64,000 bases of DNA, taken from the NCBI GenBank assembly GCA_964589175.1, contig CAZPRY010000014.1, positions 6,779 to 70,778 on the forward strand, read 5' to 3'. Positions 13,186 through 32,572 of the stretch are shown here, in pieces. The notes beneath the pieces are model-generated. The model did no database searches. It had not been told where the DNA came from and saw only the letters and a program-made list of their open reading frames with translations. The stretch comes from an uncultured bacterium (lineage in GTDB: Bacteria; Fidelibacterota; UBA2242). Each line of letters opens with the position of its first letter. The first letter of the stretch is position 1. The position numbers were made by a program, and so were the translations under genes.

Positions 13186-14247
13186 TCAATAAGCTATCTC
13201 AATGCCGATCCGCTGGATGGGCTGCAGGTATTTGTGCGACTCCCAGGCGTACTCGATCCAAAAATCCTTGCCGGTAAATTTGCCGAAATTGATACCACCG
13301 CCGAAAGTCAATCCTTTCATATTCCCGCCGAGTTCTTCGTCATCAGTATTGGGCTTCAACAGGGCAATCAGGTTGGCATGTCCCAGCGCCAGGTAGAAGA
13401 GACCGGGATAGCGCCATTCCAGAGCGCTCAGGATGGTCTCCTTTTGATCGACGGAGTTGGCGGCTTCGAAATTATAATCCAGGAAACTCGTTTTGCCGAG
13501 CGGGAATTGCATTTTAGCGGCGATATGAAAACTCATCGGCAGCGAGTATTCCTCGGATATCAATTCATACTTCACATCCTCCTCGGCGAAGGGATTCTCC
13601 GAATCGGTCATCAGGCCCTGCAGACCTTCCCCCGCATAGCGCATATCCGGGCCGAAATTGCGGATCGCGAAGCCGATTTTCAGGTTGGCGAACAAGCCGG
13701 TCTTGTACATCGCCCCGACATCGCAGGCCCAACTGGTGGCGCTGACTTTGGCCAGGTTCTGGTTCACCAGTTTGATACTCACGCCGCCGTCGAATTTGTT
13801 TGTCATCGCCCGTGCGAAGGTGACTCCGACGGCATAATCGTTGGCCGTAAAGTAAGCGCCCGTGCCCTCGTCTTCGTACTCTGTCGTCTCTTCGATATCG
13901 CCGCTCAACAGGCCGATCCCGTAAAATCCCAATGTCCCGAAACTAAGTGGAATAGCCAGGGCGATATTTTCATATTTCATGCCGGCGAAGTAGTTCGCAT
14001 GTGAAACCGCCACCGAACCGCTGGTGATGCTCCGGATACCAGCCGGATTCCAGAACATGGCCTGGGCGCTCCCATCGGAAGCCGTATAGGCGCCGGCCAG
14101 CGCGACCCCGCGTGTGCCGCCGAATATCTGGAGGAATTGCGCCCCGGCGCTGCCCTGTCCCGCGGAGGCCAGCTGCAGCCCGAAAAAACCAAGCAGAACT
14201 GTCGTTTGTAAAATCTTTTTCATATTCTCAACACTTCTATTTATCAC
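13186..14247 (-). CDS. PorV/PorQ-family outer-membrane protein (T9SS shuttle/channel family), copy 1.
   Basis: Signal peptide. N-terminal GAGAQFLQIFGGTRGVALAGAYTA…AMFWNPAGI signature typical of PorV/LptO-like FadL-fold proteins. 353 aa. C-terminal aromatic residue. Confidence 0.7.
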   Translation of the reverse strand: MINRSVENMKKILQTTVLLGFFGLQLASAGQGSAGAQFLQIFGGTRGVALAGAYTASDGSAQAMFWNPAGIRSITSGSVAVSHANYFAGMKYENIALAIPLSFGTLGFYGIGLLSGDIEETTEYEDEGTGAYFTANDYAVGVTFARAMTNKFDGGVSIKLVNQNLAKVSATSWACDVGAMYKTGLFANLKIGFAIRNFGPDMRYAGEGLQGLMTDSENPFAEEDVKYELISEEYSLPMSFHIAAKMQFPLGKTSFLDYNFEAANSVDQKETILSALEWRYPGLFYLALGHANLIALLKPNTDDEELGGNMKGLTFGGGINFGKFTGKDFWIEYAWESHKYLQPIQRIGIEIAY

Positions 14248-14283: not shown

Positions 14284-17200
14284 TCACGGTCCCAAAATCA
14301 CGGCGATTTTTCCAGTGTGCGTCAGGGTTTCGCCGTTGATTTTCGCCTCGACATAGTAGAGATACAGACCGCTGGCGACCTTCAGTCCTTCGTAATTGCG
14401 CAAATCCCAGGAGAGCGTGCCGTACTGATCGAGCACCTCGTTGGCCTCCACAATCCCGTTTTTGCGGAGATGCGCCACCATATTTCCGGCTACATTGAAA
14501 ATACGCACATGCACGGGATTGTCGATGGTTCCCAACGGCATATGCCGGAAATCGATATGCTGCGTGTAGCGGTCGGTATCCCAGATCGCCCGGACATAAT
14601 AGGGATTCGGGACAACCTTGATCTGATTCATGTCGACCTTTTCCACCGGGGTGTTCATATTGCTGGTGCCGAACCGAAAAATATCTTCGGTCGTAATCGG
14701 CCGGGAGGTGAAGATGTACAGGGTATCATCTTCCGACGGAATGTCCAGGTAATCCGCAGTCGCCAGGTTGGTATCAATCGGTACGAATACGACTTCAAAG
14801 GCAAAGGGATTGATGGCCTTCGCTTCACGCGTGGCCTCCGTCAGAATACGGGCGGTATTGATATTCAAACTGTCATAAGGCGCGCTCTGTTCGATGCGCC
14901 AATCGATTAGTCCGTCGATAATGAAGGCGCCGTTGGGATTGAACATGCGGCTTGTGACACCCAGGGTCCGGTTCCAGGCTTTCCACGGTACGCGCTGATT
15001 AGGTTTCGCGAAACTGGCGTAATCGACCATCGCCGTGGCGGCACCCGTATCCGGAAAAGTGATAAAATAATCGTACGGTTCGACCTGTCCCGGATTGATT
15101 TCGGTACGGAAGAGCGCCCCCTGATCGGAGGTCACGCCCCAGGCGACGGAATCGACCGAGAGCTGCGGCGAATCGACGCGGAACAGGAATCCGTGATCGA
15201 TCAGGGTCGAATCAGCGGCCAGTTCTTTAGCGGCATAGATACGCGGATTGTACTTGACCGTTCCGGTCAGCGTGTCCGGTCCCCAATCCATCACGCGCAA
15301 CTTCGAATACTGGTAATCGGCCAGAATCTTATTGGTCGATAAAAAAGTATTCTGATCCCGCTCCAGATTGATGACGCCTTTGCCGTAATGGATAACGCCC
15401 CGGACGGCGCCACCGTTGATCTGGCCCTGCAGATTGCCTAGGCTGTCATCCGTGACCGTCCCGGTTTCACCCTCAATCTGCAGGATTAGAGTACCCGGAT
15501 AGACATCCATCTCAGCAACCCGCAGCCGGATTGCGGAAGCATCGTTGCCGTTACCGAGTTCTTCGCCATAGATAGCCACAGGTTCCAGATCGCGATCCCA
15601 GAGGATACCATAATCCGCGCCCAGTTTGCTGCTGTTGGGATCTTCCTTGTAGAAGCGGATTTCGTAGGCATGCCCCTTAAGATTGCGATGATCCAGAATA
15701 CCGCGCGCAATTCTGCCGGTAGATTCACCTACATGCTCGACCCCGGTGAGTTCCGGTTCGCCGATCACTTCGAGCGGCTGATGCTGCGGTATCACGCTCT
15801 GAATATTCTGATAATAACTGCTCTCCAATGACGGGATGTTCAGATCGGGATAACCCTTGTCGTAAGAAGTCACCGCATAGTAATAAGTCATGCCGTCCGT
15901 CAATTCAGCGTCAACGTAGGTGTAGGCCAGATCCGTCTGGTTGCCGATGTCTTTCGTCAGATAGGTCTTTACCGTAAAGATATCACCGACGGCCGGTTTG
16001 AGCTTCTGCAGGGCTTTTTCCTCGTCTTCCACATCTACAAAGGGTTCGCCGCTATCCCAAATCCCGTTACCGTTCGAATCCGTAAACGGTTCGCCGCGGT
16101 CGCGGACACCGTTGCCTTCCCCGTCCTGATCCTTGTCCTCATACTGTCCGTTGGAAATCTGGATCAGCACGCCGTTGAAGTAGATATAGTATCCCGAACG
16201 ATAGATATCGTCCTGAGCCTTATTGGTACTGCGGTTTCCGTTGAAAGTTTTATACAACGTAAAGCCGTAGCCGTAGGTTATCGCAAAAAAGTTAAACGGC
16301 ACCAACTGCCGGTTGGTAACATCATAGATCACGACCCGCGTTGTGTCATAGTAATTGATGTTATCCGGTGTATAAGAAGTCTTAACCAGCTCAATAGTAT
16401 ATTCTGCCTCTTTGAATCTTTCGTAAAAGAGTTCCAGGAGTTTCTCATCCGTCTGGGTTCCAGACTCGATCGCCTGCAGGTCGCCCTCCGGCAGCAGGCC
16501 GGCCAGGCGGACGGTAGCATTGGAACTGCCGCGCGTATATTCAACCGTGGCGCTATTGTTCGTGCTGTCGCCCAGGACATCGTAATCGGCCAGGAGTTCC
16601 CAGCTGTCCTGCAGGCCGGACGTACTTTTATAGACCCGGAAGCCTTCGAAATCCTGTTGCCCGGTGTAAGGATCGATATCATCGAGCGGATCGCTCGTCC
16701 AGGAAAGATAGGCCCGGTGGTGTCCGGGGATCACGGTTAGTCCCGGCGACGAGGGCGGTTCGGGACCGATAAAACCGGAATTGTACTTCTGGACGGCCGC
16801 GCGCGTATTGCTCTTCAATTCAGCCAGGGAAGCGCCGCCGACAATGGCCAAGGTCACACTGATCTCTTCACCCGGATTCAAGCGTTTCACCGGTCCGGAG
16901 CTGGTCAACTGGCGCACATCCTGCGGATTTTCGTAAACCTCGAAACTGTCCACCAGGGCCAGTTCGGCGTATTTCAGGTGATCGGTGGCATCGTCGTCGA
17001 CATCACCGGGAAAGCCTTCGCTGACACCCAGATCGGAGCGAATCCAGGTCTGAAAACCGGTCAGCCCGATCTGCTTCAGTTCGCCGTCGATCGTGTCTTT
17101 GGGGGTTTCCACAAAGATCGATCCTATATAACCGGCCGAGGTCTGCCAGCCGGTTTCCATAAGATCGAAATCGTAGGAGTAGCCCAGGTTCAACTGCTTG

Positions 17201-18264
17201 TCGAATCCAATCAGATCATCGTCCGCAAAGCCGATATCGTTATCCATGAAATAACCGATAAAGACCGAATCCAGCGGGAAGCTGTTCATGTTTTTAATCT
17301 TATAATTGATGTAAAGATAGTCGTCAATGCTCCATGAGTAGGTGCGTTGTTCGACGCGCACGCCCAGCGGCCGGACATCATATCCCGTAGTCCATAGAAA
17401 ATCGGCGTAGCGATCGTTAATATAATCGCCGAAAACCGTATAAGTATCTTCATCAGAAACGATATCGCCGACCACATTGCCGGCCTGGTCTTTCCGGAAC
17501 GGATTCAGCAGAATCAACCCGGGATCCAGGCTGCTGTTTTCAGCCAACACCTGCCGGCGCTTGGCATTGATTTCCTCATAATCCAGGCGATAGATCGTAT
17601 CCTGTTCGGTATAACCGTAGACATCGCCAACCCGTGGTGCAAAAAACGCCCAGACATCCTGATATTCCTCGATATTTTTGTTTTTTTGCCCAAAGAGAAA
17701 CTGCCCTTCGTTGGTCGGACTTTTACCGTCTGTCTGTCCGTTGATCGTTTGGTTGGACTGCCACAGGCGGGCCACTGTGCTCTGGTCGGAATAGTAGGCC
17801 GCGGCTGCTACCCTGACATTCGAGAATGTACGGGTACCGCCTTTATACTCAATGATGACCGGTTTATCATCCGGCGTATTAAAATTGGGCGACTTGGCGC
17901 CGATCCACAATCCGGCGCCCCAAACGTAAAATTGGTTCGTGCCGCGTGGAAATTCCGCCGTGCGCCCGTTGTAGAGACCATAGCCGGTCGGCCACATGCC
18001 GTCGTAGCCGGTCCAGCCGGGAGGCGCCTCGAACAGGCCATTCTGGCCGGTATTGCTGATCGTATATTTCGTAAGGTACCCGGCGCCAACCCAGGAGATC
18101 ATGGTCGACGGCGGCGTCTCCGCCGTGATCTTGGCCAGCGGGGCCCGGTTCACGTCATGCAGCAGCGCGCCCGGTTTCAGACGCCCGAATCCGTATCCCG
18201 TCAGAACTGCCGAGACCAGCAGCAGGCCGGCGCTCCGTTTTATCCATACATTTCGTAATAACAT
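14284..18264 (-). CDS. Very large secreted protein (1326 aa) with variant T9SS CTD (VVPNPYY…GKIAVILGP) and thrombospondin-type-3-like Asp/Gly-rich repeats.
   Basis: C-terminal roughly 100 aa are shared with 21763..25035 and 26289..29450. Internal NGNGVRDRGEPFTDSNGNGIWDSGEPF calcium-binding-like repeat. Confidence 0.7.
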   Translation of the reverse strand: MLLRNVWIKRSAGLLLVSAVLTGYGFGRLKPGALLHDVNRAPLAKITAETPPSTMISWVGAGYLTKYTISNTGQNGLFEAPPGWTGYDGMWPTGYGLYNGRTAEFPRGTNQFYVWGAGLWIGAKSPNFNTPDDKPVIIEYKGGTRTFSNVRVAAAAYYSDQSTVARLWQSNQTINGQTDGKSPTNEGQFLFGQKNKNIEEYQDVWAFFAPRVGDVYGYTEQDTIYRLDYEEINAKRRQVLAENSSLDPGLILLNPFRKDQAGNVVGDIVSDEDTYTVFGDYINDRYADFLWTTGYDVRPLGVRVEQRTYSWSIDDYLYINYKIKNMNSFPLDSVFIGYFMDNDIGFADDDLIGFDKQLNLGYSYDFDLMETGWQTSAGYIGSIFVETPKDTIDGELKQIGLTGFQTWIRSDLGVSEGFPGDVDDDATDHLKYAELALVDSFEVYENPQDVRQLTSSGPVKRLNPGEEISVTLAIVGGASLAELKSNTRAAVQKYNSGFIGPEPPSSPGLTVIPGHHRAYLSWTSDPLDDIDPYTGQQDFEGFRVYKSTSGLQDSWELLADYDVLGDSTNNSATVEYTRGSSNATVRLAGLLPEGDLQAIESGTQTDEKLLELFYERFKEAEYTIELVKTSYTPDNINYYDTTRVVIYDVTNRQLVPFNFFAITYGYGFTLYKTFNGNRSTNKAQDDIYRSGYYIYFNGVLIQISNGQYEDKDQDGEGNGVRDRGEPFTDSNGNGIWDSGEPFVDVEDEEKALQKLKPAVGDIFTVKTYLTKDIGNQTDLAYTYVDAELTDGMTYYYAVTSYDKGYPDLNIPSLESSYYQNIQSVIPQHQPLEVIGEPELTGVEHVGESTGRIARGILDHRNLKGHAYEIRFYKEDPNSSKLGADYGILWDRDLEPVAIYGEELGNGNDASAIRLRVAEMDVYPGTLILQIEGETGTVTDDSLGNLQGQINGGAVRGVIHYGKGVINLERDQNTFLSTNKILADYQYSKLRVMDWGPDTLTGTVKYNPRIYAAKELAADSTLIDHGFLFRVDSPQLSVDSVAWGVTSDQGALFRTEINPGQVEPYDYFITFPDTGAATAMVDYASFAKPNQRVPWKAWNRTLGVTSRMFNPNGAFIIDGLIDWRIEQSAPYDSLNINTARILTEATREAKAINPFAFEVVFVPIDTNLATADYLDIPSEDDTLYIFTSRPITTEDIFRFGTSNMNTPVEKVDMNQIKVVPNPYYVRAIWDTDRYTQHIDFRHMPLGTIDNPVHVRIFNVAGNMVAHLRKNGIVEANEVLDQYGTLSWDLRNYEGLKVASGLYLYYVEAKINGETLTHTGKIAVILGP

Positions 18265-18286: not shown

Positions 18287-21200
18287 TTAAAACCTCAGGG
18301 ACACACCCAGCCTGATGATTCTGGGAATGCTGTAATTATAAGGATTGGTATAATAGGCCTTCCGCAGATTCATGTGCACTGCATAAGCATCCTCGGCCGA
18401 AGTGATCCGCCGGCCCGTCATGGGGTCGGTCTGACCGATATAACGTGCATAGCGCGAACTTTCGAACACGGGATTGCGCCCGGGATCATCGGCCAAGCCG
18501 GTATATTGATACACCTGCGCAATATTGAGCTTGGCAAACAGGTTGCGCACATCGGCATAGAAACTTAACACGGTCCTGCCGAAGAGCGGTAAATATTTCT
18601 CCACACGCAGGTCGAAACGCGTTCCCGACGGCATACGTTTGGAGCCCAGTTCAAGCGGCTTGTCGTAGATATCGACCGGCGTATAAGGCGCCCCCGAATT
18701 GATGATCGCCTGCAGGTTGGCATTGAAATTGGACAGCGGGTGCAGCCCGAAAATCTTCGGCCCTTTCTGCGCAGGAATGAAATAATTGATATTGGCCTTC
18801 AGCGAATGGGTAATATCGAATTCCAGCGGGTATTCCTTGGCCGGCAACGGACGGTCGGCCTCGTAGATATACATATAATAGTATTCGCGGCTCGACGAAC
18901 CGGTGCCCTTGGCATTCAGGTAGGAATAATTGACTTCACCCGTAAAGCCGTAAAAATTGCGGAAGGTGAATTTGAAATCCATGCCCTTGATCTTGGCGAA
19001 ATCCTCCACCTCCTGGAAGGTCACCGTAGCGACATTGCCTTCGAAAATCGTGTTGTAGGTCCGGGTCGCCAGCAGGTTTTCAACGTCCTTATAAAAGGCC
19101 GAAACCTCGATGGCCAGGTCCGGGGTGACGGAGTGTTTTAAACCGACTTCATAGGCCGTGGTTTTCTGCGGCTCGATATCGGGATTGCCGACCAGAGGAT
19201 AGCCGCTGGTCAGGTCCGTATAGAGGTTCTGGTAAATTTCGCCCAATTCCGGCATCATGAAGAAATGGCCGTAGTTCGCAAACATGGCCGTTTGATCGGA
19301 CACGGCAAAACTGATTCCGAAACGCGGGCTGATCTGATATTTGGGCTTCGCGTTTTTGTAATCGACATTACCGTCCCCTTCGGTCCCGCCGGGATTGGCG
19401 GTCACACTATAATTGTCGCCGTGCGGATCGGGATTCAGAATAGCATCGTAACCGGATTCTTTTTCATCGGTGAGGCCGTCGGAACCGGGATCGAATTCAT
19501 CCGGGTCCCACAAAGCCTTGGCATGCGGATGGAAATAGTCCGTTCGCGCCCCGATATGGAAGATCAGGTCCTCGTATTCGAAGCGATCCTCCAGCCAGAC
19601 GGCGGCTGTAGTCGGATGATACTTGTACGAATCGAAATAGGGATTGCGGTTCAGAAATTGCATATCCAGATATCTCAAATCGCTGAATTTCAGCAGCCCG
19701 CCGAATTTGATCTCGTTGTACATATTCACCTGTGAATTCAGGTGAAACTCGCTCGCATAATGTTTGGTGTCCTGTTTATGAAACCAGGGGGAACCGGGGC
19801 CATAGGTAAAAACGTTGAACAAATCCCTATCCCAGGAAAAACCGCTGTGCAGGTCGCCGTTGTAGCCCCACAGATCGTTAACCGTCTGCGAATCCGGGTG
19901 CGCGAAAAGATAATCCGAGTAGAGGTCGATGTCGAAATCGCGCATATAAACGCCGTTGTCACTGGGGTTGTACCAGGCGGATGTCGGTTCCAGATCGCTG
20001 GGAATATACCAGTAGGCCGCATCGTGGTAGCGCTGATTCAGAGCCTCCGCCTCGCTCTGCGGACTGTTCCAGCTGCCCGCCGCGAGATCGTAATAACCGC
20101 GGTTGGCATAGTAGTAATAAAAAGCCTGATCTTCGTAACTCGCGGAACTCAGCGCCGAGCCGTCCGGCAACCGGTAAAAATCTTTGATCAGCGGAATATT
20201 GCGTGCATCCACAATCGCGTTCCACTCGCGCGTCTCGGGATCGTACCAGCCATTGCCGATGGCTCCGTCGTTTTTATTCATCCAATCCAGGCGCGAAGAC
20301 AGGTAATGAAAGTCCCTATAGTTCTGCCCTTCGCCGGAGCTGAAATTGCTGTAGGTATTGAAATAATAGGCTAAAAACTCCCAGGCCGTATTTTTGGATA
20401 TGCTGTTTTGCACTTTCAGGCTTAGGCGGCTGTGGCCGTTTTCACGACCGTAATAGGACCGCAGCCAGTCGCCGTAACTGATATTGTGTTTATAGAGCAG
20501 TTCATCTTCACGGCTGAAACTGCCCTGCACCGTGACTTTGAAAGCCGAATTATCGGGGGAATAAACCAGCTTCGCCGTTCCGTTCGGCGCGAGGACGCTG
20601 TTATGCTGCTGCGGAAACGGTTTGGGATTGCGATCGGCCGTGTTCTCGTAGGTGCCCGAGATAAAATAGGTCAGGTTGCGCTTCGTAAGAGGAACCGGAC
20701 CGCTGAGATTGGCACGTGTTTTATGATAGCCGAAATCGGCGTCCGGGTCCAGTTTGCTGCCCCAGGAGTCCGACTCATATTCGATGTTTCCGGCGTGACG
20801 GGAGCTGCGTCCTTCCTTGGTAATGATGTTTACCGCCCCGGACATGGCCTCGCCGTATTCCGCCGAAAATCCTCCGGTCGAAATCACGATCTGTTCGATG
20901 GCGTTGTTATCGATCTCAATCCCGACGCCCTGCGAAACGGGATCGTTGGTATTGATGCCGTCCACAAAGAAAGCCACCTCGCCCGCGCGCCCGCCGCGCA
21001 GGTGCAGGCCCCGCGAATTCCCGGCTTCGGTTTCGATGGCTCCGGCGCTGTTGGCCAACACCTCGGTAAAATCGGAAACCGGCATGCGTTTGATCTCCTC
21101 GCCCTTGACCTCGCGCTGGGCTACCGGTGAACGCACGGCAATGATGGCCCGCTTGGCTTCGGCGACCACCTCCACTGCCTGTCCTTCAATAGCCTCCACT

Positions 21201-21535
21201 TTCAGTTCCGCATTCATGACCGTTGTCTGCCCCGGAAAAACCGATAGCCCGGTTGTCAGTTTGCTACCGTAGCCGATGTAGGTGACGCGCACGTCATAGG
21301 TGCCGGCCAGTACGTTCGGGATGAGGTAATCCCCATCTTCGTTGGTCGCCGCACCTTTGGACAACTCTGCAGGAAGAATTATAACGTTGGCACCATACAG
21401 CGGATTGCCGTTATCGGCATCCACGACACGACCGCGAAGTTTGCCGGCGACACGATCGGATTGGGCATAGGCATCTGAGCCCAGCAGGAATATCAATAAA
21501 ACAAAAAGTTGAGGAAGGTAACTCTTAAGTCTCAA
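18287..21535 (-). CDS. TonB-dependent receptor, SusC-sized, with N-terminal carboxypeptidase-regulatory-like domain. Paralog of 29480..32572.
   Basis: Signal peptide. TonB-box-like VEVVA. Plug-domain end TGGFSAEYGEAMSGAVNIITKEG. C-terminal …GVSLRF. Confidence 0.8.
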   Translation of the reverse strand: MRLKSYLPQLFVLLIFLLGSDAYAQSDRVAGKLRGRVVDADNGNPLYGANVIILPAELSKGAATNEDGDYLIPNVLAGTYDVRVTYIGYGSKLTTGLSVFPGQTTVMNAELKVEAIEGQAVEVVAEAKRAIIAVRSPVAQREVKGEEIKRMPVSDFTEVLANSAGAIETEAGNSRGLHLRGGRAGEVAFFVDGINTNDPVSQGVGIEIDNNAIEQIVISTGGFSAEYGEAMSGAVNIITKEGRSSRHAGNIEYESDSWGSKLDPDADFGYHKTRANLSGPVPLTKRNLTYFISGTYENTADRNPKPFPQQHNSVLAPNGTAKLVYSPDNSAFKVTVQGSFSREDELLYKHNISYGDWLRSYYGRENGHSRLSLKVQNSISKNTAWEFLAYYFNTYSNFSSGEGQNYRDFHYLSSRLDWMNKNDGAIGNGWYDPETREWNAIVDARNIPLIKDFYRLPDGSALSSASYEDQAFYYYYANRGYYDLAAGSWNSPQSEAEALNQRYHDAAYWYIPSDLEPTSAWYNPSDNGVYMRDFDIDLYSDYLFAHPDSQTVNDLWGYNGDLHSGFSWDRDLFNVFTYGPGSPWFHKQDTKHYASEFHLNSQVNMYNEIKFGGLLKFSDLRYLDMQFLNRNPYFDSYKYHPTTAAVWLEDRFEYEDLIFHIGARTDYFHPHAKALWDPDEFDPGSDGLTDEKESGYDAILNPDPHGDNYSVTANPGGTEGDGNVDYKNAKPKYQISPRFGISFAVSDQTAMFANYGHFFMMPELGEIYQNLYTDLTSGYPLVGNPDIEPQKTTAYEVGLKHSVTPDLAIEVSAFYKDVENLLATRTYNTIFEGNVATVTFQEVEDFAKIKGMDFKFTFRNFYGFTGEVNYSYLNAKGTGSSSREYYYMYIYEADRPLPAKEYPLEFDITHSLKANINYFIPAQKGPKIFGLHPLSNFNANLQAIINSGAPYTPVDIYDKPLELGSKRMPSGTRFDLRVEKYLPLFGRTVLSFYADVRNLFAKLNIAQVYQYTGLADDPGRNPVFESSRYARYIGQTDPMTGRRITSAEDAYAVHMNLRKAYYTNPYNYSIPRIIRLGVSLRF

Positions 21536-21762: not shown

Positions 21763-24700
21763 CTATCGCGCTATAAAAACCGCCAGTTTCCCTGTTTTAA
21801 TTCCGTAACTGCCCATATCGACATGGTAGATGTAAATTCCGCTGGCGACCGGCTTGCCGTATTCATTCTGCAAATCCCAGCGCAGAAAAGGTGTCGACGG
21901 ATCGTCCTTCTCATAGCGGCGGATCAGGTTTCCGGCCAGATCGAAGATGCGAAGTGTGCATTTCCCCGGCAAATATGTAAACTGCACCCATTGCTCGTCG
22001 CCCTTTTCCTGATTATGCGCAACATAATAAGGATTGGGCACCACCCGAATTTTATCCAGATCCGCCGCTAAACGGGACGCATCGACGGTCCTGCCCGCAG
22101 GCGCCGTGAAGCAAAAGACATCATTTTCCGTCGGCGGTTTGGCGGTGACAATCCGAATCCATTCCCCGGCATGCGGTGGCCCCAGGAAAAACCCGTTGCT
22201 ATCCAGATCCCCGGGTTGGGCATAGTGATCAATATCTGTGTACATGTTAATCATAAAATGATTAATGGCCGGATTGGTTCCATCCGACGCACTGAAACCG
22301 GGACTAAGTTTTCCGTTATCAGCGGCAATGTAAGCGGCCGCTTGCGCCGGTTTGTACTCGACATCATCATAAATATAGAGAAGTTCGAAAGCTGGCCCGT
22401 ATTGCCCCTCCAGGCTCCTGCTCCATCGCCCGTCACCATTAGTATCGAGAATACAAACCGGCAGGCGTATACGCGTTCCGTCAGGATCGATACGCCAGAC
22501 GACAAATGGGACAAAGTCCGCTTTCCCGCTCAGGGGACTTTTCAATACCCGGAACGTCGGATATTCCCACACCAGCGTGCTGTCCGCATCGCTGAAGATG
22601 AGATCATAATCCTTGGGCGTCATCCGGCCATATTGATCGATACGCGCGAGGTCCGTCCCGGTATCTTCCGAAATCACAAAAACCGGCCAGTGCTGCGAGC
22701 GTCCGTAGTTGTTCAAACTACTCCATAACCTGCTATCGTAAACTTCGCCGCTGGCCGGATCCAGTTCGACCATGGCTTTGATACCGGGAGATAACGAGGC
22801 TACTTTCACCAGGAGACCGTCGACGACCGTGTAGGCTTCATCACCCCGTATATTCGTCTGAGCGGCCAGCACCGTACAATCATCGGTTTCATCGATCAGA
22901 TCCCAGGTCGGCCCTGTGCTTGATTCTAGAAAAAATACACGATATTCGTGCCCCGTCGTATGGGAAGGGTCGGCGACGATGACGATCAGTTCCACGTCAT
23001 TCGCCACTAAATCAGGATTGATCGGCTCGTAGCGTACTGCAATCGTATCGCCGTAAGTTGAACCGTAGACCACGCCGGGCTCCGCCCGCGGGATTACCCG
23101 CAGAATCGCCGGCTTACTCTGCAAAATCTCCGGGTCGCTGTATCGCAGATATGATTCCGCCACAACACCGAAGTAATATTCCTTGCCATTCACCAACGGA
23201 AAACCCTCGTCTTTAAAATCCGGGCGATGGTTTTTCGTAATCCGGATATGACGCGGCCCCGTATATTCCTGCGCCTCGCCGGGATCGCTCAGATGCCAGC
23301 GTGCAATTTCCAACGGATCGCTGCCGTCCTCGTCGGCGTATTGATAAACCGCATAGCCGTAGAAATTGTAGACGGCATCATCGATGATATACTCTTCCAG
23401 CGTATCGCCACCCACTACCGTCCGCAGGGTATCACCGAGGTAATAGCGGGCAAACACATCCGGACTTTCGTAAGGTGTTCCGTCGGCGTTCTGTTCCGGC
23501 CCAGCGTCCCAGCTGAGTACACATTCATTAGCGTATTCAGTCATTGTAACTTGCGGAATGGCCGGTGGCCGGGCAACCTGGAAATCGGCATCGTAGAGGA
23601 GTTCCAGTTTTTGCGCCATTTTCTTGAGATGGGTGACGCTATTAAGATTGTTGCTTCCACGCGCCACCAGAACCGCCGCAATGATTTCCTGGACGCCCGG
23701 CTCGCCCAAATCGGGCCGCGCGTTGCCGTTCGCGTCCTCCCAGCGCGGCAGGTCGAAGGGACCGGTTCCGATCAGCATTCGTCTATCATCCGGATGACTA
23801 TCCAACCAGCCGGTATGGGTCTCCGGATCGCCCGGGAACATATACCGCGTGGGCGGAGCATCTTCATTAGCCCCATGTTCCCCATCATTCGTCATATTTG
23901 TTCCATCTCTCCAGCGGCCGGTCAAATAGCGATAGGCATCGGAGGCAGTTTGCGGATTCCCATGAATATTATCGCTGCCGATATAATACGAGAAGGACGT
24001 CATTCCCATATCGTGATCGCCGGAATTCTCACCGGCGTCTGTCGTCGTGACACCTTCTAAAATCATAAAGCCAACGGCAGGCGGATCTTCCCCATAATTC
24101 TGATCGTAATTACTGGCATTATAGCAAAATCCCAGATTCAGCAGCGTATCGCAGCCTAGAAGATCATCCGATGCATCTCCTACGTCCGGATCAGCCCAAA
24201 TGGCAAAATAAACAGCACTCCAATCCGAATCGCTTTTATTCACCAATTGCCACTTCACAAAGATTACATCTTGAAGTATATCCTTGCGATCATAAGCCCA
24301 CACTGTTTGCCGAATTTCCACGCCCAGCGCCTCGCTGCCAAATTCTTTATGGTCTGTCAAGTCGTTGTATACACTGAAGATGGTCCGGTTGCCCAATAAA
24401 AACGGCTCGCCTCCTTCAGCCAGCGGTGCACCCTGATCGACCGGCCATTCATTCCAGTCGCCGCTCCTGTCGGAATATATTTCGTACCAACGATATTTCG
24501 GATCGTTTGAATCCGAGGCCTCGCCGGGTGAGATAATTTCTCCCGGTTTAAATTCCGTCGCTGAATGTTGAACTCCGGCGACTTTGATTTCATCTCCCTT
24601 CTTAAAGGCAATCCATTGTCCGGCGCCAAAGACCGGACTGAGTCCCGATCCCTTGGGCCATTCCAGACCCCAATCCCCCAGAGTCTTATCGTAAAACCAG

Positions 24701-24849
24701 ATACCGTTGTTGTAAAATACGCCCTTCAGGCGGTTGATATCCATCCAGACTTCAGAGGCAGCGTCGGTCGCAGTGGCCCGGGATACCGAGTCGTTATGAC
24801 CGAATACAGGAAAGCAGGGAAAAAGGAAAAGCAGGAAGATTATTTTCAT
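21763..24849 (-). CDS. Large T9SS cargo protein with variant CTD, paralog of 26289..29450. Start placed at the internal Met, MKIIFLLFLFPCFPVFG.
   Basis: Shared GLEWPKGSGLSPVFGAGQWIA…HSATEF…DPKYRWYE blocks. CTD VVPNPYYVAH…RIFDLAGNLI…GIYIYHV…GKLAVFIAR. Confidence 0.7.
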   Translation of the reverse strand: MKIIFLLFLFPCFPVFGHNDSVSRATATDAASEVWMDINRLKGVFYNNGIWFYDKTLGDWGLEWPKGSGLSPVFGAGQWIAFKKGDEIKVAGVQHSATEFKPGEIISPGEASDSNDPKYRWYEIYSDRSGDWNEWPVDQGAPLAEGGEPFLLGNRTIFSVYNDLTDHKEFGSEALGVEIRQTVWAYDRKDILQDVIFVKWQLVNKSDSDWSAVYFAIWADPDVGDASDDLLGCDTLLNLGFCYNASNYDQNYGEDPPAVGFMILEGVTTTDAGENSGDHDMGMTSFSYYIGSDNIHGNPQTASDAYRYLTGRWRDGTNMTNDGEHGANEDAPPTRYMFPGDPETHTGWLDSHPDDRRMLIGTGPFDLPRWEDANGNARPDLGEPGVQEIIAAVLVARGSNNLNSVTHLKKMAQKLELLYDADFQVARPPAIPQVTMTEYANECVLSWDAGPEQNADGTPYESPDVFARYYLGDTLRTVVGGDTLEEYIIDDAVYNFYGYAVYQYADEDGSDPLEIARWHLSDPGEAQEYTGPRHIRITKNHRPDFKDEGFPLVNGKEYYFGVVAESYLRYSDPEILQSKPAILRVIPRAEPGVVYGSTYGDTIAVRYEPINPDLVANDVELIVIVADPSHTTGHEYRVFFLESSTGPTWDLIDETDDCTVLAAQTNIRGDEAYTVVDGLLVKVASLSPGIKAMVELDPASGEVYDSRLWSSLNNYGRSQHWPVFVISEDTGTDLARIDQYGRMTPKDYDLIFSDADSTLVWEYPTFRVLKSPLSGKADFVPFVVWRIDPDGTRIRLPVCILDTNGDGRWSRSLEGQYGPAFELLYIYDDVEYKPAQAAAYIAADNGKLSPGFSASDGTNPAINHFMINMYTDIDHYAQPGDLDSNGFFLGPPHAGEWIRIVTAKPPTENDVFCFTAPAGRTVDASRLAADLDKIRVVPNPYYVAHNQEKGDEQWVQFTYLPGKCTLRIFDLAGNLIRRYEKDDPSTPFLRWDLQNEYGKPVASGIYIYHVDMGSYGIKTGKLAVFIAR

Positions 24850-25144
24850 CCGGGATTTTAAGCGCAGATCAACCAGATCGATCTTAAGAATCACCGGACA
24901 CAGCATTGACGTTAAGAATAACAGGGTGGTCGTGACGATGGATACGTAATTGCGAGGATTTGACCTATTCCAGAGGATCGCGCAGAAGAGCGTCCCCGTG
25001 ATAAAAAGGCAGCAGATGTATGCTAATCTCTTCATTCCCCCTCCATCGATTTAGCATACGGCCAGAGAACCGGCCACGGAAATTATCTTTAAGGCAATCT
25101 ATAAACAATAATTCGAATTTTCAACTGCAATGATCCAGGGGCAT

Positions 25145-25174
25145 AAAAAAAAGCGGCAGTGAAACCACTGCCGC
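25145..25174 (-). terminator. Rho-independent terminator after PorV-like copy 2.
   Basis: gcggcagtg-gtttc-actgccgc hairpin followed by T8 on the minus strand. Confidence 0.75.
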
Positions 25175-25206
25175 TTTCAGGATGCTTTATGCTATCCAGT
25201 CAAGAA

Positions 25207-26244
25207 CTAGAAGGCGAAGCTAACCGAGAAATACTGGTTGGCATCAAAAATGTCCATCGGCCGATTGGCATAATCGAACATGATTTTGTTGCCGCCCATA
25301 TTCAGATTCAAACCGAACCCGAAAGTGAGACCATACTGTGCTTTTTCGTAGCCACTCTCGTAGTCCTCAGGATAGAGCGTCATCATGTAGCCGCCTCTGA
25401 GGAAGAGCATATCGTTCAACGAATACTCCGCACCGGTCGAGATAGCATCGAGCATGAACGTATTGTTGGAATAGGCGCCGGCCAGACTGAGTTTGTGCAT
25501 AGTGCCAAAATTCATCGTGTAACCGAGACCCATGTTCATGCTGGCCGGCAGTTCTTCTTCGGCCAGATCCAGTTTGGTCTTACGGGATGTCGCAGTCGGA
25601 CCGGCCCATGGTACCGAACTATCAAATTCGATACCGGTTCCGTCCCACTGCAGTTTGCTGCCGATATTTCTCATCGTTACGCCGAAAGCAATACCGAACG
25701 GCGAAACATACTGCAGACCGAAATCAAAGGCAACGGCGGAAGCGCTCATATTGCCAACCTTCTCGGATATCATCTTGGCATTCGTGCCAAAACTGATACG
25801 ATCCGTGAAACGATTGGAATAGGTTGCCGTGACCGTCAGATAATCCGGGCTCAGCATCTCGCCGGTTCCTTCCGGCATATCAATCGTGGTGACTTCGATC
25901 TCGCCGATATCCATAACCTGGAAAGCGATACCGACTGCACCCGACCGGCCGACGCGTGCGCCGGCAGCCAGGTACGATACTTTCATATCCGCAAAATACT
26001 GCATGTAGTTGAAGGTTGCGGAAGCGACATTCATCTTGGCCAGACCCGCTGGATTCCAATAAATACCTTCTGCACCTCCCACATTGGCGATATTTGCTCC
26101 TCCCAAGGCCACATTACGCGCCCCCATAGGGATAAACAATTCGGGAGCAGCGCTTGTGCCGACCTTAGGAGCGCTCGCAAAAACGCTCTGCGAACCAATG
26201 AGGAGCAGTATTAAAAGCCCAATCAAAATATATCTTCTACTCAT
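25207..26244 (-). CDS. PorV/PorQ-family outer-membrane protein, copy 2.
   Basis: Signal peptide (MSRRYILIGLLILLLIGSQSVFA). GARNVALGGANIANVGGAEGIYWNPAGL signature. Ends SVSFAF. Confidence 0.7.
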   Translation of the reverse strand: MSRRYILIGLLILLLIGSQSVFASAPKVGTSAAPELFIPMGARNVALGGANIANVGGAEGIYWNPAGLAKMNVASATFNYMQYFADMKVSYLAAGARVGRSGAVGIAFQVMDIGEIEVTTIDMPEGTGEMLSPDYLTVTATYSNRFTDRISFGTNAKMISEKVGNMSASAVAFDFGLQYVSPFGIAFGVTMRNIGSKLQWDGTGIEFDSSVPWAGPTATSRKTKLDLAEEELPASMNMGLGYTMNFGTMHKLSLAGAYSNNTFMLDAISTGAEYSLNDMLFLRGGYMMTLYPEDYESGYEKAQYGLTFGFGLNLNMGGNKIMFDYANRPMDIFDANQYFSVSFAF

Positions 26245-26288
26245 ATTACATCTCCCATTTTTAAGTCCGTAATTCATTTTCATACCCA

Positions 26289-29200
26289 TTAATAGGTATC
26301 CAATCGTTCGTTCGGGGCAAAGACGGCAATCTTACCAACCTTCTCACCGACATCCGGAACTTCAATATGGAAAATGTAGATGCCGCTAGCAACCGGAATC
26401 TCATACTCGTTTTCCAGGTCCCATTTCAGTAGGGTGTAGGTATCGTCTTTTTCCAACTTACGGATTGGGTTACCAGCCAGGTCGAAGATTCTGATTGTAC
26501 ATTTCGGCGGTACGTTCGTGAATTGGACCCACCGCTCGAAGATGTTGGCTTCACCGCTATGATATCCGTAGTACGGGTTCGGAACGACACGGATATTTTC
26601 CATATCGGCTTTCAGGTCCTCATTCGTACTTGTGACCGCCGCTGGAGCCGTAAACGTGAAGACATCATTCGTGGTATTCGGCTTATAGGTGTTGAGTCTC
26701 ATCCATTCACCGGCATGCGGAGGTCCGTAAAAATAGCCGTCGGCATCCAGATCACCGGCCGCAGCGTACCCGTCAAGGTCGATATACATGTTGATCATGA
26801 AACGGTTGATTGCCGGATATACGACACCATAAGGGCCGTATCCAGGAGCAACGGTGCCGTCATTGGTGGAGATGTAGGTAGCGACATCGGCCGGTTTATA
26901 CTCCGCATTGTCATAGATATAGAACATATCGAAAGCCGGGCCATATATACCGTCCGGGTTTCTATTCCAGATTCCATCTCCGGCGGCATCCAGCACGCAG
27001 ACCGTAATCCGCATCCGGGTACCGTCCGGATCGATACGCCAGAAGGTAGCCGGTACGAAAGCGGGTTTGCCATTCGAATCAACCAGTACGAGATCGGTGT
27101 AGTAGTCCCAAACCAGTGTACTATCCGTATCAGTAAAGATGATCTCGTAGTCTTTGGGAGTCATCAAACCGAAGCGGTCCATACGGGCATAGTCGGTTCC
27201 GGCGCTTTCCGAAATAACGAATACCGGCCAATGCTGCGAACGTCCGTAGTTGTTCAGACTGCCCATCAGGCGGGTATCATATACCGCACCGGTGGCCGGA
27301 TCGATTTCAACGATCGATTTGATGCCGGGCAGCGGACCTGCTACCTTGACCAACAGACCATCGACAACGGTGTAGGCATCATCGTTTTCCTGGTTGACCT
27401 GATCGGCAAGTACGACCGTATTGGTCGTCATATCCCACAGATCCCAGATGATATTGCCTTCGCCGTCATCCTTGAACTTGACGCCGTAGTCGTGTCCGGT
27501 AACTTCGGCAGGATCCACCACAATGGCGGTGACACCACCGTCACCGGCGGGAATACCGGCGTTCACCGGGACATAACCGACTTCCAGAGTATCGCCCTCG
27601 GAAGAGTTGTAACGTACACCCGGATGCTGCTGGGGCGTCACTTTTACTTTCGTGATCGGGCTGGGCAGGGTCTGCGGTCTGGCAAACTTACAATAGGAGT
27701 AAGCCTGAACGCCAAAGTAGTATTCTTTGCCGTTCGCCAGCGGATCGCCGACATTGCCGACCTTGGAGTTTTTATTGGTGCGCAATATAGCAAAACGCGG
27801 ACCGGTGTAAGCCACCGCATCGGCCGGATCGGCAACCCCGTAACGGGCGTATTCAACCGGATCACTACCGGATCCATCCGTAAACTGCCATACGACGTAC
27901 TCGGAGAAGTTGAAGGTACCGTCGGTAACGTCTACATAGTCATAACCGACGACGATCTTCTGACCGACGAGACCGTTGGCTACCAGGTCTTCAACGTCAT
28001 AGAGGCTGATGCCGTCCGGCATATACTCTGAACGCTGGTCCCAGGTCAGGATGACATGTCCGTCGAGCTCGCTGGACTTTACGACCGGTTGAGCCGGCGC
28101 CGGCGGAAGCACGAAGTTAATGTCATACGCCAGCTGGGCGATTTCATCAACAGCCTTCAAAACAGTCACACTGTTGAGGTTGTTGGAACCTTTGGCCAGA
28201 ATGATACCGCAGACGATTTCCTGCACACCGGTTTCACCGAAATCCGGCAGATTATTGCCGTTTTCGTCGTCCCACATCGGCATGGTGAAAGGTCCGGTCG
28301 TCATCAGGAAACGACGGTCATCCGGGTTCTGATCCAGCCAGCCCGTATCGCTCTCCGGATCGCCGGGGAACATAAACGTGGTCGCCGGGTAGGATTGATC
28401 GATGCCGTTACCTCCATCATTGGTGATGAAGGTACCATCGCGCCAGATACCGCGGAAGAAGTTCCAGACGTCGCCGCCGCTCTGCGGGTTACCCTGCGGG
28501 GAATCATTGTTATTATAGTACACAAAAGAGGTCATTTTGAGCATCGTGAAATCATCCAGAACCGTGCCGTCCGGCAGCGAAACCGTCGAGCCGGCTTCGG
28601 GGACGATCGGTCCCTGGAAAAAGTCGATACCCAAGGCCGGCGGCGCCGAACCGTAGTTCTGATCGGCATCCGTCGAGTTGTAGCACATACCCAGGCCGAG
28701 AAGACTATCGCAACCAACGAAGTCATCATTGGCGTCTCCCAGATCCGGATCGGACCAGATCGAGAAGTAGGTATCCGCCCAATCTTTATCGCTCTTGTTG
28801 GCAATCTGCCACTTGATAAAGATCATATCGCCGATAGCATCGGCGCGGTTGAAGGCCCAGGCCATCTGGCGAACTTCGGCGCCGAGTTTCGCGGTGGCGT
28901 ACTCGGTATGATCGGCCAGATCGTTATAGACACACCAGGCCGTCTGGTCGCCGATCATCATCGGATTGCCGTCGGCATCCACCGGGGCGCCCTGATCGGT
29001 CGGCCAATTGCTCCAGTCGCCTGTTCCATCGGAACGCAGCTCGTACCAGCGATATTTCGGATCGTTGCGGTTGTCAGCCACGCCCGGGCTCAGGATCATA
29101 CCCGGCATGAATTCCGTGGCGGAGTGCTGAATACCGGCAACGCGCGGTACACCGTCCACCATGGCCCCGATCCACTGACCGGCGCCAAAGATAGGGCTCA

Positions 29201-29423
29201 GGCCCGATCCCTGCGGCCATTCGAGACCCCAGTCACCCAGGATATTGTCGTAGAACCAGGTCCCGTTATTGCGCATAACCCCGTTCATTCGGTTGGCATT
29301 GATCCAGATATCACTGGTAACGCCGGTTTTCCCGAGATAGCGGGGTTGATCAATAGCTTCGGCACCGAATACCAGCGTCGAAACCATCAATAAAAGCATA
29401 GAGATTATTAGAATCTTCTTCAT
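26289..29423 (-). CDS. Large T9SS cargo protein with variant CTD, paralog of 21763..24849. Start placed at the internal Met, MKKILIISMLLL.
   Basis: Same conserved blocks as above. CTD VVPNPYYGYH…RIFDLAGNPI…GIYIFHI…GKIAVFAPNERLDTY. Confidence 0.7.
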   Translation of the reverse strand: MKKILIISMLLLMVSTLVFGAEAIDQPRYLGKTGVTSDIWINANRMNGVMRNNGTWFYDNILGDWGLEWPQGSGLSPIFGAGQWIGAMVDGVPRVAGIQHSATEFMPGMILSPGVADNRNDPKYRWYELRSDGTGDWSNWPTDQGAPVDADGNPMMIGDQTAWCVYNDLADHTEYATAKLGAEVRQMAWAFNRADAIGDMIFIKWQIANKSDKDWADTYFSIWSDPDLGDANDDFVGCDSLLGLGMCYNSTDADQNYGSAPPALGIDFFQGPIVPEAGSTVSLPDGTVLDDFTMLKMTSFVYYNNNDSPQGNPQSGGDVWNFFRGIWRDGTFITNDGGNGIDQSYPATTFMFPGDPESDTGWLDQNPDDRRFLMTTGPFTMPMWDDENGNNLPDFGETGVQEIVCGIILAKGSNNLNSVTVLKAVDEIAQLAYDINFVLPPAPAQPVVKSSELDGHVILTWDQRSEYMPDGISLYDVEDLVANGLVGQKIVVGYDYVDVTDGTFNFSEYVVWQFTDGSGSDPVEYARYGVADPADAVAYTGPRFAILRTNKNSKVGNVGDPLANGKEYYFGVQAYSYCKFARPQTLPSPITKVKVTPQQHPGVRYNSSEGDTLEVGYVPVNAGIPAGDGGVTAIVVDPAEVTGHDYGVKFKDDGEGNIIWDLWDMTTNTVVLADQVNQENDDAYTVVDGLLVKVAGPLPGIKSIVEIDPATGAVYDTRLMGSLNNYGRSQHWPVFVISESAGTDYARMDRFGLMTPKDYEIIFTDTDSTLVWDYYTDLVLVDSNGKPAFVPATFWRIDPDGTRMRITVCVLDAAGDGIWNRNPDGIYGPAFDMFYIYDNAEYKPADVATYISTNDGTVAPGYGPYGVVYPAINRFMINMYIDLDGYAAAGDLDADGYFYGPPHAGEWMRLNTYKPNTTNDVFTFTAPAAVTSTNEDLKADMENIRVVPNPYYGYHSGEANIFERWVQFTNVPPKCTIRIFDLAGNPIRKLEKDDTYTLLKWDLENEYEIPVASGIYIFHIEVPDVGEKVGKIAVFAPNERLDTY

Positions 29424-29479
29424 AAATCTTCCTCCAATATTACACAACATTAAATCCCCTGATTATATCCCACACTCTA

Positions 29480-32400: not shown

Positions 32401-32572
32401 CAGAAGCAGCTCCCAAAAACAGGGATTCATCATCGATGATGATATTTACACCTGTTAATGGCTCGCCAGTAGCCTTGTCAACAACTGTTCCTGCGATCTT
32501 ACCGACCGTTGCTGCGAACATAGCAAATGGTAGCAAAATCACTAAAAAGCAAATCGAGACACGACGTACCAT
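29480..32572 (-). CDS. TonB-dependent receptor with CarbopepD_reg-like N-domain, paralog of 18287..21535.
   Basis: TonB-box EEVMVTA. Plug TGGFNAEYGEAMSGIIAITT. 1030 aa. Confidence 0.8.
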   Translation of the reverse strand: MVRRVSICFLVILLPFAMFAATVGKIAGTVVDKATGEPLTGVNIIIDDESLFLGAASDAEGYYSILNVPVGGYTVRASYIGYKDVVVQGVRVSLDLTTEMNFELEVTALEFEEVMVTAQRPMIRKDETNTNIIKSAEEIQHLPIRSIQDIVGTVAGVVKEENSGAMNVRGGRSSETAVYIDGVFVNDPYNYAVRIHLPASAIEEMSVQTGGFNAEYGEAMSGIIAITTNAGTDRYSASVEAVTDEFLSADKEALGAYSYGFNEYTMTLSGPIIPKKKHTFFFSGVRTYRADITPSYGWAYNPWRLDDYTYTHNSYDPSLFDEYQVAYDTTFAADGTTVEDVTSDTTSIKNYKFNARLPKNASSDWSYTGKIKLQLGKKMELKSSISQTNRQFSADFLGTAAAIQPIRFFDTEHRPLYFTDTQSINTTLTHTLSGHTFYDLKFMHFDTEVKCYDPTFKDDLEKYGDPTYNPWPDEAQYYGEAYTGRLGPDFFQPYSQYDSYYKQRTTYWGIDFDLTHQQGKYHTFKAGFEYKYHTLRSIRIYTPTKLADPDYSTEIEKYRAADIRFYGYDVDGNEVDDGDYFDTEFDANLSPTNDAWKKQAPYNPIIMSGYLQDKVEFRDLILNLGLRYDHINPNGWMFKEIAAQYIDADGKVNYNGNGTYVAGTGMFGGDEAFTREDVVDSETYYYISPRLGMSFPVTDMTVFHAQYGIFYQAPRLTDLYSSPFYLDRYVKSGGYFTSLDNPNLRPPKTISYEIGFKQRLGEMAALQLTAFYKETEDLVQLINETTDVTNIAFYQNGDYGTIKGLDVIFTLRRWKNLSATMNYEMQFANGTGSASGGNFDIAWQGGARGHFPKYAQPLAFEQRHTGTLNLDYRLGQEASVPAALKNFGANMQFAFNSGNPFTRAKIVNNFPFNGRYDNDALSEQPLSAVNSEVSPWVFRIDLKIDKGFYIGKAKLTAYAWVINLLNTANVKDVYITTGLPNDTGYLGTAPGKTYWNSLDDTGKSLYKMREWDYNNYGVPRQIRLGLMLEI

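Follow-up and report, generated by a model that had tools for sequence, protein, structure and literature searches.

Large secreted proteins with a PorZ-like C-terminal domain are encoded between TonB-dependent receptors and PorV/PorQ-family barrels

Do three large secreted proteins encoded in a stretch of DNA from an uncultured Fidelibacterota bacterium end in ordinary type IX secretion system (T9SS) sorting domains, or in a distinct tail with an outer-membrane partner of its own? In ordinary type A cargo of this system, the C-terminal domain (CTD) is cut off by PorU and the protein is linked to lipopolysaccharide. The stretch (64,000 nucleotides of contig CAZPRY010000014.1, here called the window) encodes paralogues of 1326, 1090 and 1053 aa, and the original prediction assigned their shared tail to a third CTD class with its own cognate outer-membrane partner, by analogy with type B CTDs and their adjacent PorP/SprF partners. 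What we find is a three-gene cassette, repeated in the window and widespread beyond it, in which a large protein with a discrete, PorZ-like CTD subtype is encoded between a TonB-dependent receptor (TBDR) and a β-barrel of the PorV/PorQ family. The reading that we favor, and to which we give about an even chance, is that large protein and barrel form a cognate pair like PorZ–PorQ: a T9SS-exported protein, held by its uncleaved tail on the barrel encoded next door, would serve as a surface co-receptor for the TBDR.

The features of the two cassettes, and of an additional paralogue that lies between them, are as follows.

29480..32572, minus strand: TonB-dependent receptor 1, 1030 aa, first gene of cassette 1, with PF13620 (CarboxypepD_reg), PF07715 (Plug) and PF00593 (barrel) domains
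26289..29450, minus strand: large secreted protein, open reading frame (ORF) of 1053 aa; probable start M10, giving 1044 aa
26289..26630, minus strand: variant (PorZ-type) CTD of the 1053-aa protein
25207..26289, minus strand: PorV/PorQ-family barrel gene 1 (NF033709), 360-aa ORF, last gene of cassette 1
25149..25178, minus strand: intrinsic-terminator-like hairpin, a 13-bp stem followed by a T run, directly 3' of barrel gene 1
21763..25035, minus strand: large secreted protein, 1090-aa ORF, extra paralogue downstream of barrel gene 1
21763..22086, minus strand: variant CTD of the 1090-aa protein
18287..21535, minus strand: TonB-dependent receptor 2, 1082 aa, first gene of cassette 2, with CarboxypepD_reg, Plug and barrel domains
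14284..18264, minus strand: large secreted protein, 1326 aa, a divergent paralogue with close relatives P0245 and P0251
14284..14658, minus strand: variant CTD of the 1326-aa protein, VVPNPYY motif included
13186..14247, minus strand: PorV/PorQ-family barrel gene 2 (NF033709), 353 aa, last gene of cassette 2

Within the two units, intergenic gaps are 22–44 nt; that between receptor and large protein is 29 nt in cassette 1 and 22–29 nt across the window. The TBDR genes directly upstream of two of the three large genes had escaped the original prediction, and both of their products score above the cut-offs for PF07715 and PF00593, in addition to carrying PF13620. P0123 is 100% identical to the 1053-aa protein from M10 onward, and barrel gene 1 probably starts at M16 (26244), which gives 345 aa where its homologues have 344–346 aa; with the starts indicated by homologues, an apparent 1-nt overlap at 26289 disappears. 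The hairpin, which has the look of a strong terminator, closes the three-gene operon of cassette 1. Beyond it, the 1090-aa ORF, whose probable start as judged from homologues is M63 (∼24849), has neither a barrel nor a TBDR of its own. All three large proteins have a Sec signal peptide and no lipobox cysteine, and the barrels have a signal peptide and an aromatic C-terminal residue. The 1090- and 1053-aa proteins are ∼53% identical to one another, and the 1326-aa protein is 25–26% identical to either. The two receptors are 30–37% identical and the two barrels 27%; that each cassette has its own copy of these paralogous barrels argues against a single housekeeping PorV.

The motifs on which the distinct tail was originally recognized (VVPNPYY, W, RIF(D/N)(L/V)AGN, ASG(I/L)Y(I/L)(Y/F) and GK(I/L)AV) are indeed present in all three large proteins, within a domain of ∼100–115 aa that has 33 invariant columns and a mean column identity of 62% in the three-sequence alignment. 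The interval first given for it in the 1326-aa protein, 14284–14600, does contain the tail, but it starts a few codons past VVPNPYY and the domain reaches ∼14658. None of the established sorting-domain models claims the three tails. The type A model TIGR04183 (cut-off 23) scores 18.9, 16.6 and no match, PF18962 (cut-off 27) scores 12.2, 14.4 and no match, and the type B model CHU_C (PF13585, cut-off 27) scores 13.9–18.5, whereas TIGR04131, also for type B, finds no match at E ≤ 10. The name "type C" is already taken in NCBIfam by the ChiA-type model NF033708, which matches 0 of 81 variant tails at E ≤ 0.01. The check proposed with the original prediction, against TIGR04183 and TIGR04131, thus came out as expected for a distinct tail. 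Its count of canonical type A cargo proteins in the window was too high by one: four, not five, pass TIGR04183 (28–41 bits; ends at 22, 7044, 11024 and 34759), and these four imply a T9SS.

Distinct does not mean unrelated. When two profiles, one of 100 variant tails and the other of 44 canonical tails found at the same loci, are aligned by HHalign, the probability is 96.9%, the E-value 1.9e-10 and the identity 25%, with the motifs in the same order and a ∼9-residue insertion after PNPYY in the variant tails. By this comparison, the tail is homologous to the type A domain and not an unrelated fold. Scores against the two hidden Markov models (HMMs) are nevertheless bimodal, variant tails scoring 70–185 on the variant model and 0–32 on the canonical one, and canonical tails 0–25 and 55–155, respectively. 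The tail is a discrete CTD subtype. The proposed third class accordingly holds as a separable subclass linked to a barrel, and fails as a class unrelated to type A.

In sequence as well as in predicted structure, this subtype comes nearest to the PorZ and PorU CTDs. The C-terminal ∼95 positions (∼660–757) of the PorZ model NF052228 match 80 of 81 variant tails (best E 9e-15) and 11 of 44 canonical ones. Searched against all PDB sequences, the variant profile picks up PorZ (5m11, E 3.6e-4) and PorU (6za2, E 0.018) and no substrate CTD, whereas substrate CTDs (8glj_D, 8glk_D, 5uyt and RgpB) are what the canonical profile recovers, with PorZ only at E 0.81. An AlphaFold2 (AF2) model of the CTD of the 1053-aa protein alone has a predicted local distance difference test score (pLDDT) of 92.2, and the best Foldseek match of this model in the PDB is again PorZ 5m11 (E 1.3e-6, template-modeling (TM) score 0.67, rmsd 2.7 Å), followed by PorU and then by substrate type A CTDs; 8glk_D and 8gl8_D are matched at a TMt of ∼0.7. 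The likeness to PorZ ends with the tail. Whole large proteins score 23–26 bits against NF052228 (cut-off 260), in the CTD region only. The CTD is also better conserved than any other part of the large protein (p-distance 0.50, versus 0.64 for the body).

Two further features of the tail were observed. Many variant tails, that of the 1053-aa protein included (26289–26320), have a conserved extension of ∼9 residues, PNERLDTY, past the last strand; it is absent from canonical type A tails and from the 1090- and 1326-aa proteins. In five proteins of 1400–2400 aa (P0241, P0242, P0243, P0250 and P0252), the domain core (profile positions ∼37–94) occurs in 8–14 internal tandem copies, so the fold also serves as a repeat unit and not only as a terminal tail.

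The original prediction also placed a PorV/PorQ-like gene immediately after two of the three large genes, and this stands for the 1053- and 1326-aa genes: on the PorV/PorQ family model NF033709 (cut-off 90), the products of barrel genes 1 and 2 score 172.6 and 141.5 bits. Both fall below the cut-offs of the equivalog models, with 104.1 and 83.8 for PorQ (NF033711, cut-off 220) and 67.7 and 38.7 for PorV (NF033710, cut-off 250), and for both the PorQ model scores above the PorV model. By these scores, the barrels form a separate PorV/PorQ subfamily, and they are taken to be of the 14-strand type. Barrel 1 in addition matches PF19572 and the PDB PorV structure 6h3i (E 1.7e-4), and its homologues are named PorV/PorQ family by NCBI. 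The PorP/SprF model TIGR03519 is absent from the partner genes or far below its cut-off.

Whether the pairing is a property of this tail or an accident of one contig was decided by a scan of genomes, one per species, in which receptor, body, tail type and barrel were mapped with HMMs built from the window; for the family itself, a 10-sequence alignment (A4) was used, as a 25-sequence alignment (A3) was too diverse. We confirmed at least 595 loci of the cassette family in at least six lineages (Ignavibacteria/Melioribacter, Calditrichia, Marinimicrobia/Fidelibacterota, Eisenbacteria, GN15, KSB1, Cloacimonadota). Both neighbors could be assessed for 88 variant-tail genes, and 64 of these (plus 3 split by frameshifts) have a TBDR directly upstream and a barrel directly downstream; the remainder are extra tandem paralogues after the barrel or in arrays. 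A further comparison is made within the protein family, with loci pooled. A barrel follows immediately in 76 of 107 variant-tail genes and in 0 of 35 canonical-tail genes (Fisher p 3e-15), and a receptor precedes immediately in 67 of 101 and 0 of 29, respectively (p 1e-11), although the genes entering these tests are not phylogenetically independent. The canonical-tail relatives came from a second scan and include a full-length member (L056:6456-9668). The adjacency to PorV-like genes that had been anticipated for other genomes is therefore found and follows tail type within one family. When canonical-tail ORFs of any family within 10 kb of the cassettes are considered, 0 of 41 are followed by a barrel.

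The same cassette of TBDR, large protein and barrel is returned when look-ups start from homologues of the barrel, and the window's layout of TBDR, large protein, PorV-type gene and second large protein recurs at three other loci (L002, L001 and L035). The pairing also survives changes in the other components. At L086, P0287 has a different N-terminal region of 416 aa followed by the variant tail and then a PorV gene, and at L054 a large protein and a barrel are paired without a TBDR. At L104 (1-4085), an unrelated cargo protein with choice-of-anchor-Z repeats (NF058597) precedes a PorV/PorQ-family gene (NF033709, 107 bits); its tail matches the PorZ C-terminus best (28 bits), with TIGR04183 just at cut-off (23.7), which suggests that the pairing of tail and barrel extends beyond one protein family. 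In a mirror-tree analysis, all four parts co-vary (r 0.75–0.87), with r 0.86–0.87 between the receptor and the other parts.

Some loci depart from the simple cassette or stand in a particular setting. Arrays of three to six large-protein paralogues, all with the variant tail, occur at L109 (2-17921), L001, L029 and L040, with one shared barrel gene or none within reach, and recall variable surface-protein arrays. The cassette at L087 (1-12082) has a setting like a polysaccharide utilization locus (PUL), with a Y_Y_Y/HisKA_3 sensor kinase and a GerE response regulator upstream and an alpha-L-fucosidase (GH29) and a GH1 enzyme downstream, a hint that some cassettes at least may serve to take up glycans; in the window, the neighboring genes suggest peptides. 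A contig from a rotifer assembly (Rotaria sp., L084) contains four tandem bacterial genes of the family with canonical type A tails and looks like bacterial contamination of a eukaryotic assembly.

What carries the tail was judged by exhaustive search of cluster representatives, since a word-indexed profile search gave short fragments only. The three-sequence tail profile matches 10,968 representatives at E < 1e-3 and 3,203 at E < 1e-10, always at the extreme C-terminus apart from the proteins with internal repeats of the domain core described above. Among the best 150 carriers, essentially every full-length one (signal peptide, 950–1300 aa) belongs to the same large family, and the shorter ones are fragments of that family's C-terminal module of ∼350 aa. 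We had considered the tail as a general tag on diverse cargo and rejected this, because nearly all carriers proved by BLAST and HMM searches to be one family or its C-terminal module. Members are annotated as "hypothetical" or, inconsistently, as having a "type A sorting domain". The AF2 model of the whole 1053-aa protein is an all-beta multidomain array (pLDDT 88.7), and Foldseek with this model returned low-TM multidomain matches only (PorZ via the CTD, the macroglobulin (MG) domain arrays of C3 and alpha-2-macroglobulin, and a GH94 N-domain), yielding no function for the large protein. The residues invariant in the family are mostly Asp and Gly, as in DPDxGDxxDDxxG, a pattern that suggests metal-dependent binding rather than a recognizable catalytic site.

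The closest known counterpart is the PorZ–PorQ pair of the Porphyromonas gingivalis attachment complex. Of the T9SS proteins, PorU and PorZ are the two with CTDs that remain uncleaved, and they are held on PorV and PorQ, respectively (PMC10947112, PMC10202324), and PorQ–PorZ forms without need of PorU and PorV (PMC10947112). The cassettes would share with PorZ–PorQ an atypical, retained CTD on a barrel paralogous to PorV, with retention inferred here by analogy; the best sequence and structural match of the tail is the PorZ CTD, and the barrels favor the PorQ model. They differ in that the body is unrelated to PorZ, with no PorZ match outside the CTD and a whole-protein TM score of 0.10, in that the barrels are below the PorQ cut-off, and in that the genes lie side by side, occur in several copies and come together with a TBDR gene. 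The likely role here is nutrient capture and not the delivery of anionic lipopolysaccharide (A-LPS). PorU–PorV is the next nearest pair, as PorU is the second-best match of the tail by sequence and structure and its CTD is retained on PorV (PMC10202324); the large proteins here lack a peptidase domain, however, and canonical tails match PorU at least as well, so the PorU likeness is not specific to the variant.

Other systems share single traits. Type B cargo with PorP/SprF (SprB–SprF) combines a CTD subtype with an outer-membrane partner of its own, whose gene follows directly and which is used for surface anchorage (PMC9143113), but the variant tail has no TIGR04131 match, PF13585 is weak and the partner is of the PorV/PorQ family. 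With type A CTDs, the tail shares the beta-sandwich fold and the order of the PNP(F/Y), GxY and terminal K motifs; the three window tails are below the type A cut-offs, ∼10–25 residues longer, and cluster apart from the 44 canonical tails. The order of a large CarboxypepD_reg receptor and then a gene for a predicted surface-exposed partner recalls SusC–SusD and BtuB–BtuG, as does the PUL-like setting of L087. The partner here is no lipoprotein and has neither the SusD fold nor the SusD family, its exposure being proposed to depend on the T9SS and a barrel anchor, and none of the SusC/RagA models matched the receptors at E ≤ 0.01. In BamG–BamH of the Bacteroidota β-barrel assembly machinery (BAM), the extracellular loops of a FadL-like barrel with 14 strands keep a surface protein in place (PMC12578637); this is a different system, and the resemblance is one of principle only.

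The mechanism that we propose can be set out step by step. The large protein would cross the inner membrane by Sec, which is read directly from its signal peptide. The CTD would then direct export by the T9SS, as its retained motifs and the type A cargo in the window suggest. Retained on the protein, the CTD would dock it non-covalently on the next-door barrel, a step to which the likeness to PorZ and PorU and the adjacency of the genes point. The anchored protein may finally act as a substrate-capturing co-receptor beside the TBDR; this step, drawn from operon structure, is the weakest. As to the cognate partner that was first proposed, its genomic side stands, the adjacency being strong and specific, and the concept itself has precedent in PorZ–PorQ and PorU–PorV.

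The alternative that we take most seriously, though we regard it as unlikely, is that the tail is an ordinary, diverged type A CTD cleaved by PorU, and that the adjacent PorV paralogue is a dedicated, transient shuttle that takes this very large cargo out of the translocon rather than a permanent anchor. The tail is, after all, homologous to type A with its motifs kept, 74 of 81 variant tails match TIGR04183 weakly, some members are named type A, and PorV is known as a shuttle (PMC5562754). What speaks against cleavage is that the likeness is specifically to the uncleaved CTDs of PorZ and PorU and not to substrate CTDs, and that relatives within the family that have canonical tails do without a private barrel (0/35). 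We give still less weight to the idea that the barrel is a FadL-like channel which, together with the TBDR, imports a product that the large protein sets free, in which case the position of its gene would be unconnected with the CTD. PorV is indeed a member of the FadL superfamily, Toluene_X gives a weak match (E 0.0012), PF03349 is found on some homologues, and the cassette at L087 has glycoside hydrolases and a sensor/regulator on its flanks. Yet the PorV/PorQ model is well above its cut-off and FadL far below, adjacency tracks CTD type within one family, the pairing recurs at L104 with unrelated cargo that has a PorZ-like tail and no family body, and L054 keeps the pair of large protein and barrel without a TBDR.

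Two other explanations seem to us similarly improbable. In one, the domain is not a secretion signal at all but an Ig-like beta-sandwich of the FlgD type, a mere docking module on a protein that reaches the surface by another route. Weak FlgD_ig matches, the 8–14 internal copies of the core in P0241 and P0242, and the fact that T9SS core genes were not seen in the window fit such a module, while the constant position at the extreme C-terminus of the family, the T9SS CTDs as nearest relatives and the T9SS implied by four type A cargo proteins in the window do not. In the other, the large proteins are adhesins or an S-layer-like coat whose linkage to the receptor reflects co-regulation, with no functional complex. 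Their all-beta domain array resembles MG, fibronectin type III (FN3) and adhesin repeats, and tandem arrays of up to six genes (L109) recall variable surface proteins; against this, the receptor is directly upstream in 67 of 101 cases, at a distance of 22–29 nt in the window, and varies together with the other components (r 0.86–0.87).

Several observations also weigh on the cognate-pair interpretation itself. About a quarter of variant-tail genes are without a barrel of their own, in the tandem arrays of L029, L040 and L109 and in a lone gene at L117. The mirror-tree signal between CTD and barrel beyond shared history is negligible, with a partial r of 0.06 given the TBDR. A conserved module of ∼250 aa precedes the variant tail in every case, and this module rather than the CTD could couple the protein to the barrel or the receptor. 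Pfam and PDB searches gave no family and no sequence relative for the body of the large protein, and model searches found no T9SS core genes in the 64-kb window. Some variant tails reach the type A cut-off, and some family members carry the type A name at NCBI (P0062), so the subtype boundary is fuzzy. All steps after Sec export, finally, are drawn from gene neighborhood and similarity, and are put forward as predictions.

The rest of the window includes housekeeping genes (40–55 kb) and a few genes of separate note. One 494-aa ORF at 41820–43304 (minus strand) combines a PgsA-like CDP-alcohol phosphatidyltransferase (aa 22–184) with a complete FtsY (aa 227–490), as an in-frame fusion or as two adjacent genes without a stop codon between them. 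The type A cargo protein of 1084 aa at 7044–10298 (minus strand) has a metalloprotease-like N-terminal region with weak matches to MXAN_2677/2678 and NF038122, and a 429-aa protein at 3508–4797 (minus strand) has a weak RelA/SpoT-type synthetase domain.

Individual CTDs with cognate barrels are known already from PorZ–PorQ, PorU–PorV and type B with PorP/SprF, and a 2023 review put forward the more general hypothesis that certain CTDs are handled, and shielded from cleavage, by PorV-like barrels cognate to them (PMC10202324). We found no description of the cassette in the literature searched, the coverage of which was incomplete, so that this is absence of evidence only. What appears to be new is a PorZ-like CTD subtype that is discrete, widespread and not part of the attachment complex, the almost obligatory pairing of its genes with that for a private barrel of a PorV/PorQ subfamily, and the joining of tail and barrel with a large TBDR in one cassette across several lineages of the Fibrobacteres–Chlorobi–Bacteroidetes (FCB) group. 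The cognate-barrel hypothesis has so far rested on few cases, and the cassette adds hundreds of natural instances, including cultivable Melioribacter, in which CTD subtype predicts the presence of a private barrel, making the hypothesis directly testable. Annotation would gain from dedicated HMMs of the tail and of the barrel subfamily.

More broadly, the cassettes suggest that, beyond the classical Bacteroidia, receptor/co-receptor complexes can be built in a manner that depends on the T9SS. In its most specific form, which we offer tentatively and consider less probable than the reading favored above, the three products would form a stable, hitherto undescribed outer-membrane machine for nutrient uptake: the PorZ-type CTD would be plugged on its private PorQ-like barrel, and the large protein would be the extracellular lid or substrate catcher of the TBDR. 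If so, these cassettes would encode a T9SS-built analogue of the SusCD "utilisomes" in those FCB phyla that make little use of surface lipoproteins, and, more generally, PorZ-like CTDs would mark cargo for cognate PorV/PorQ paralogues, as the pair at L104 may illustrate.

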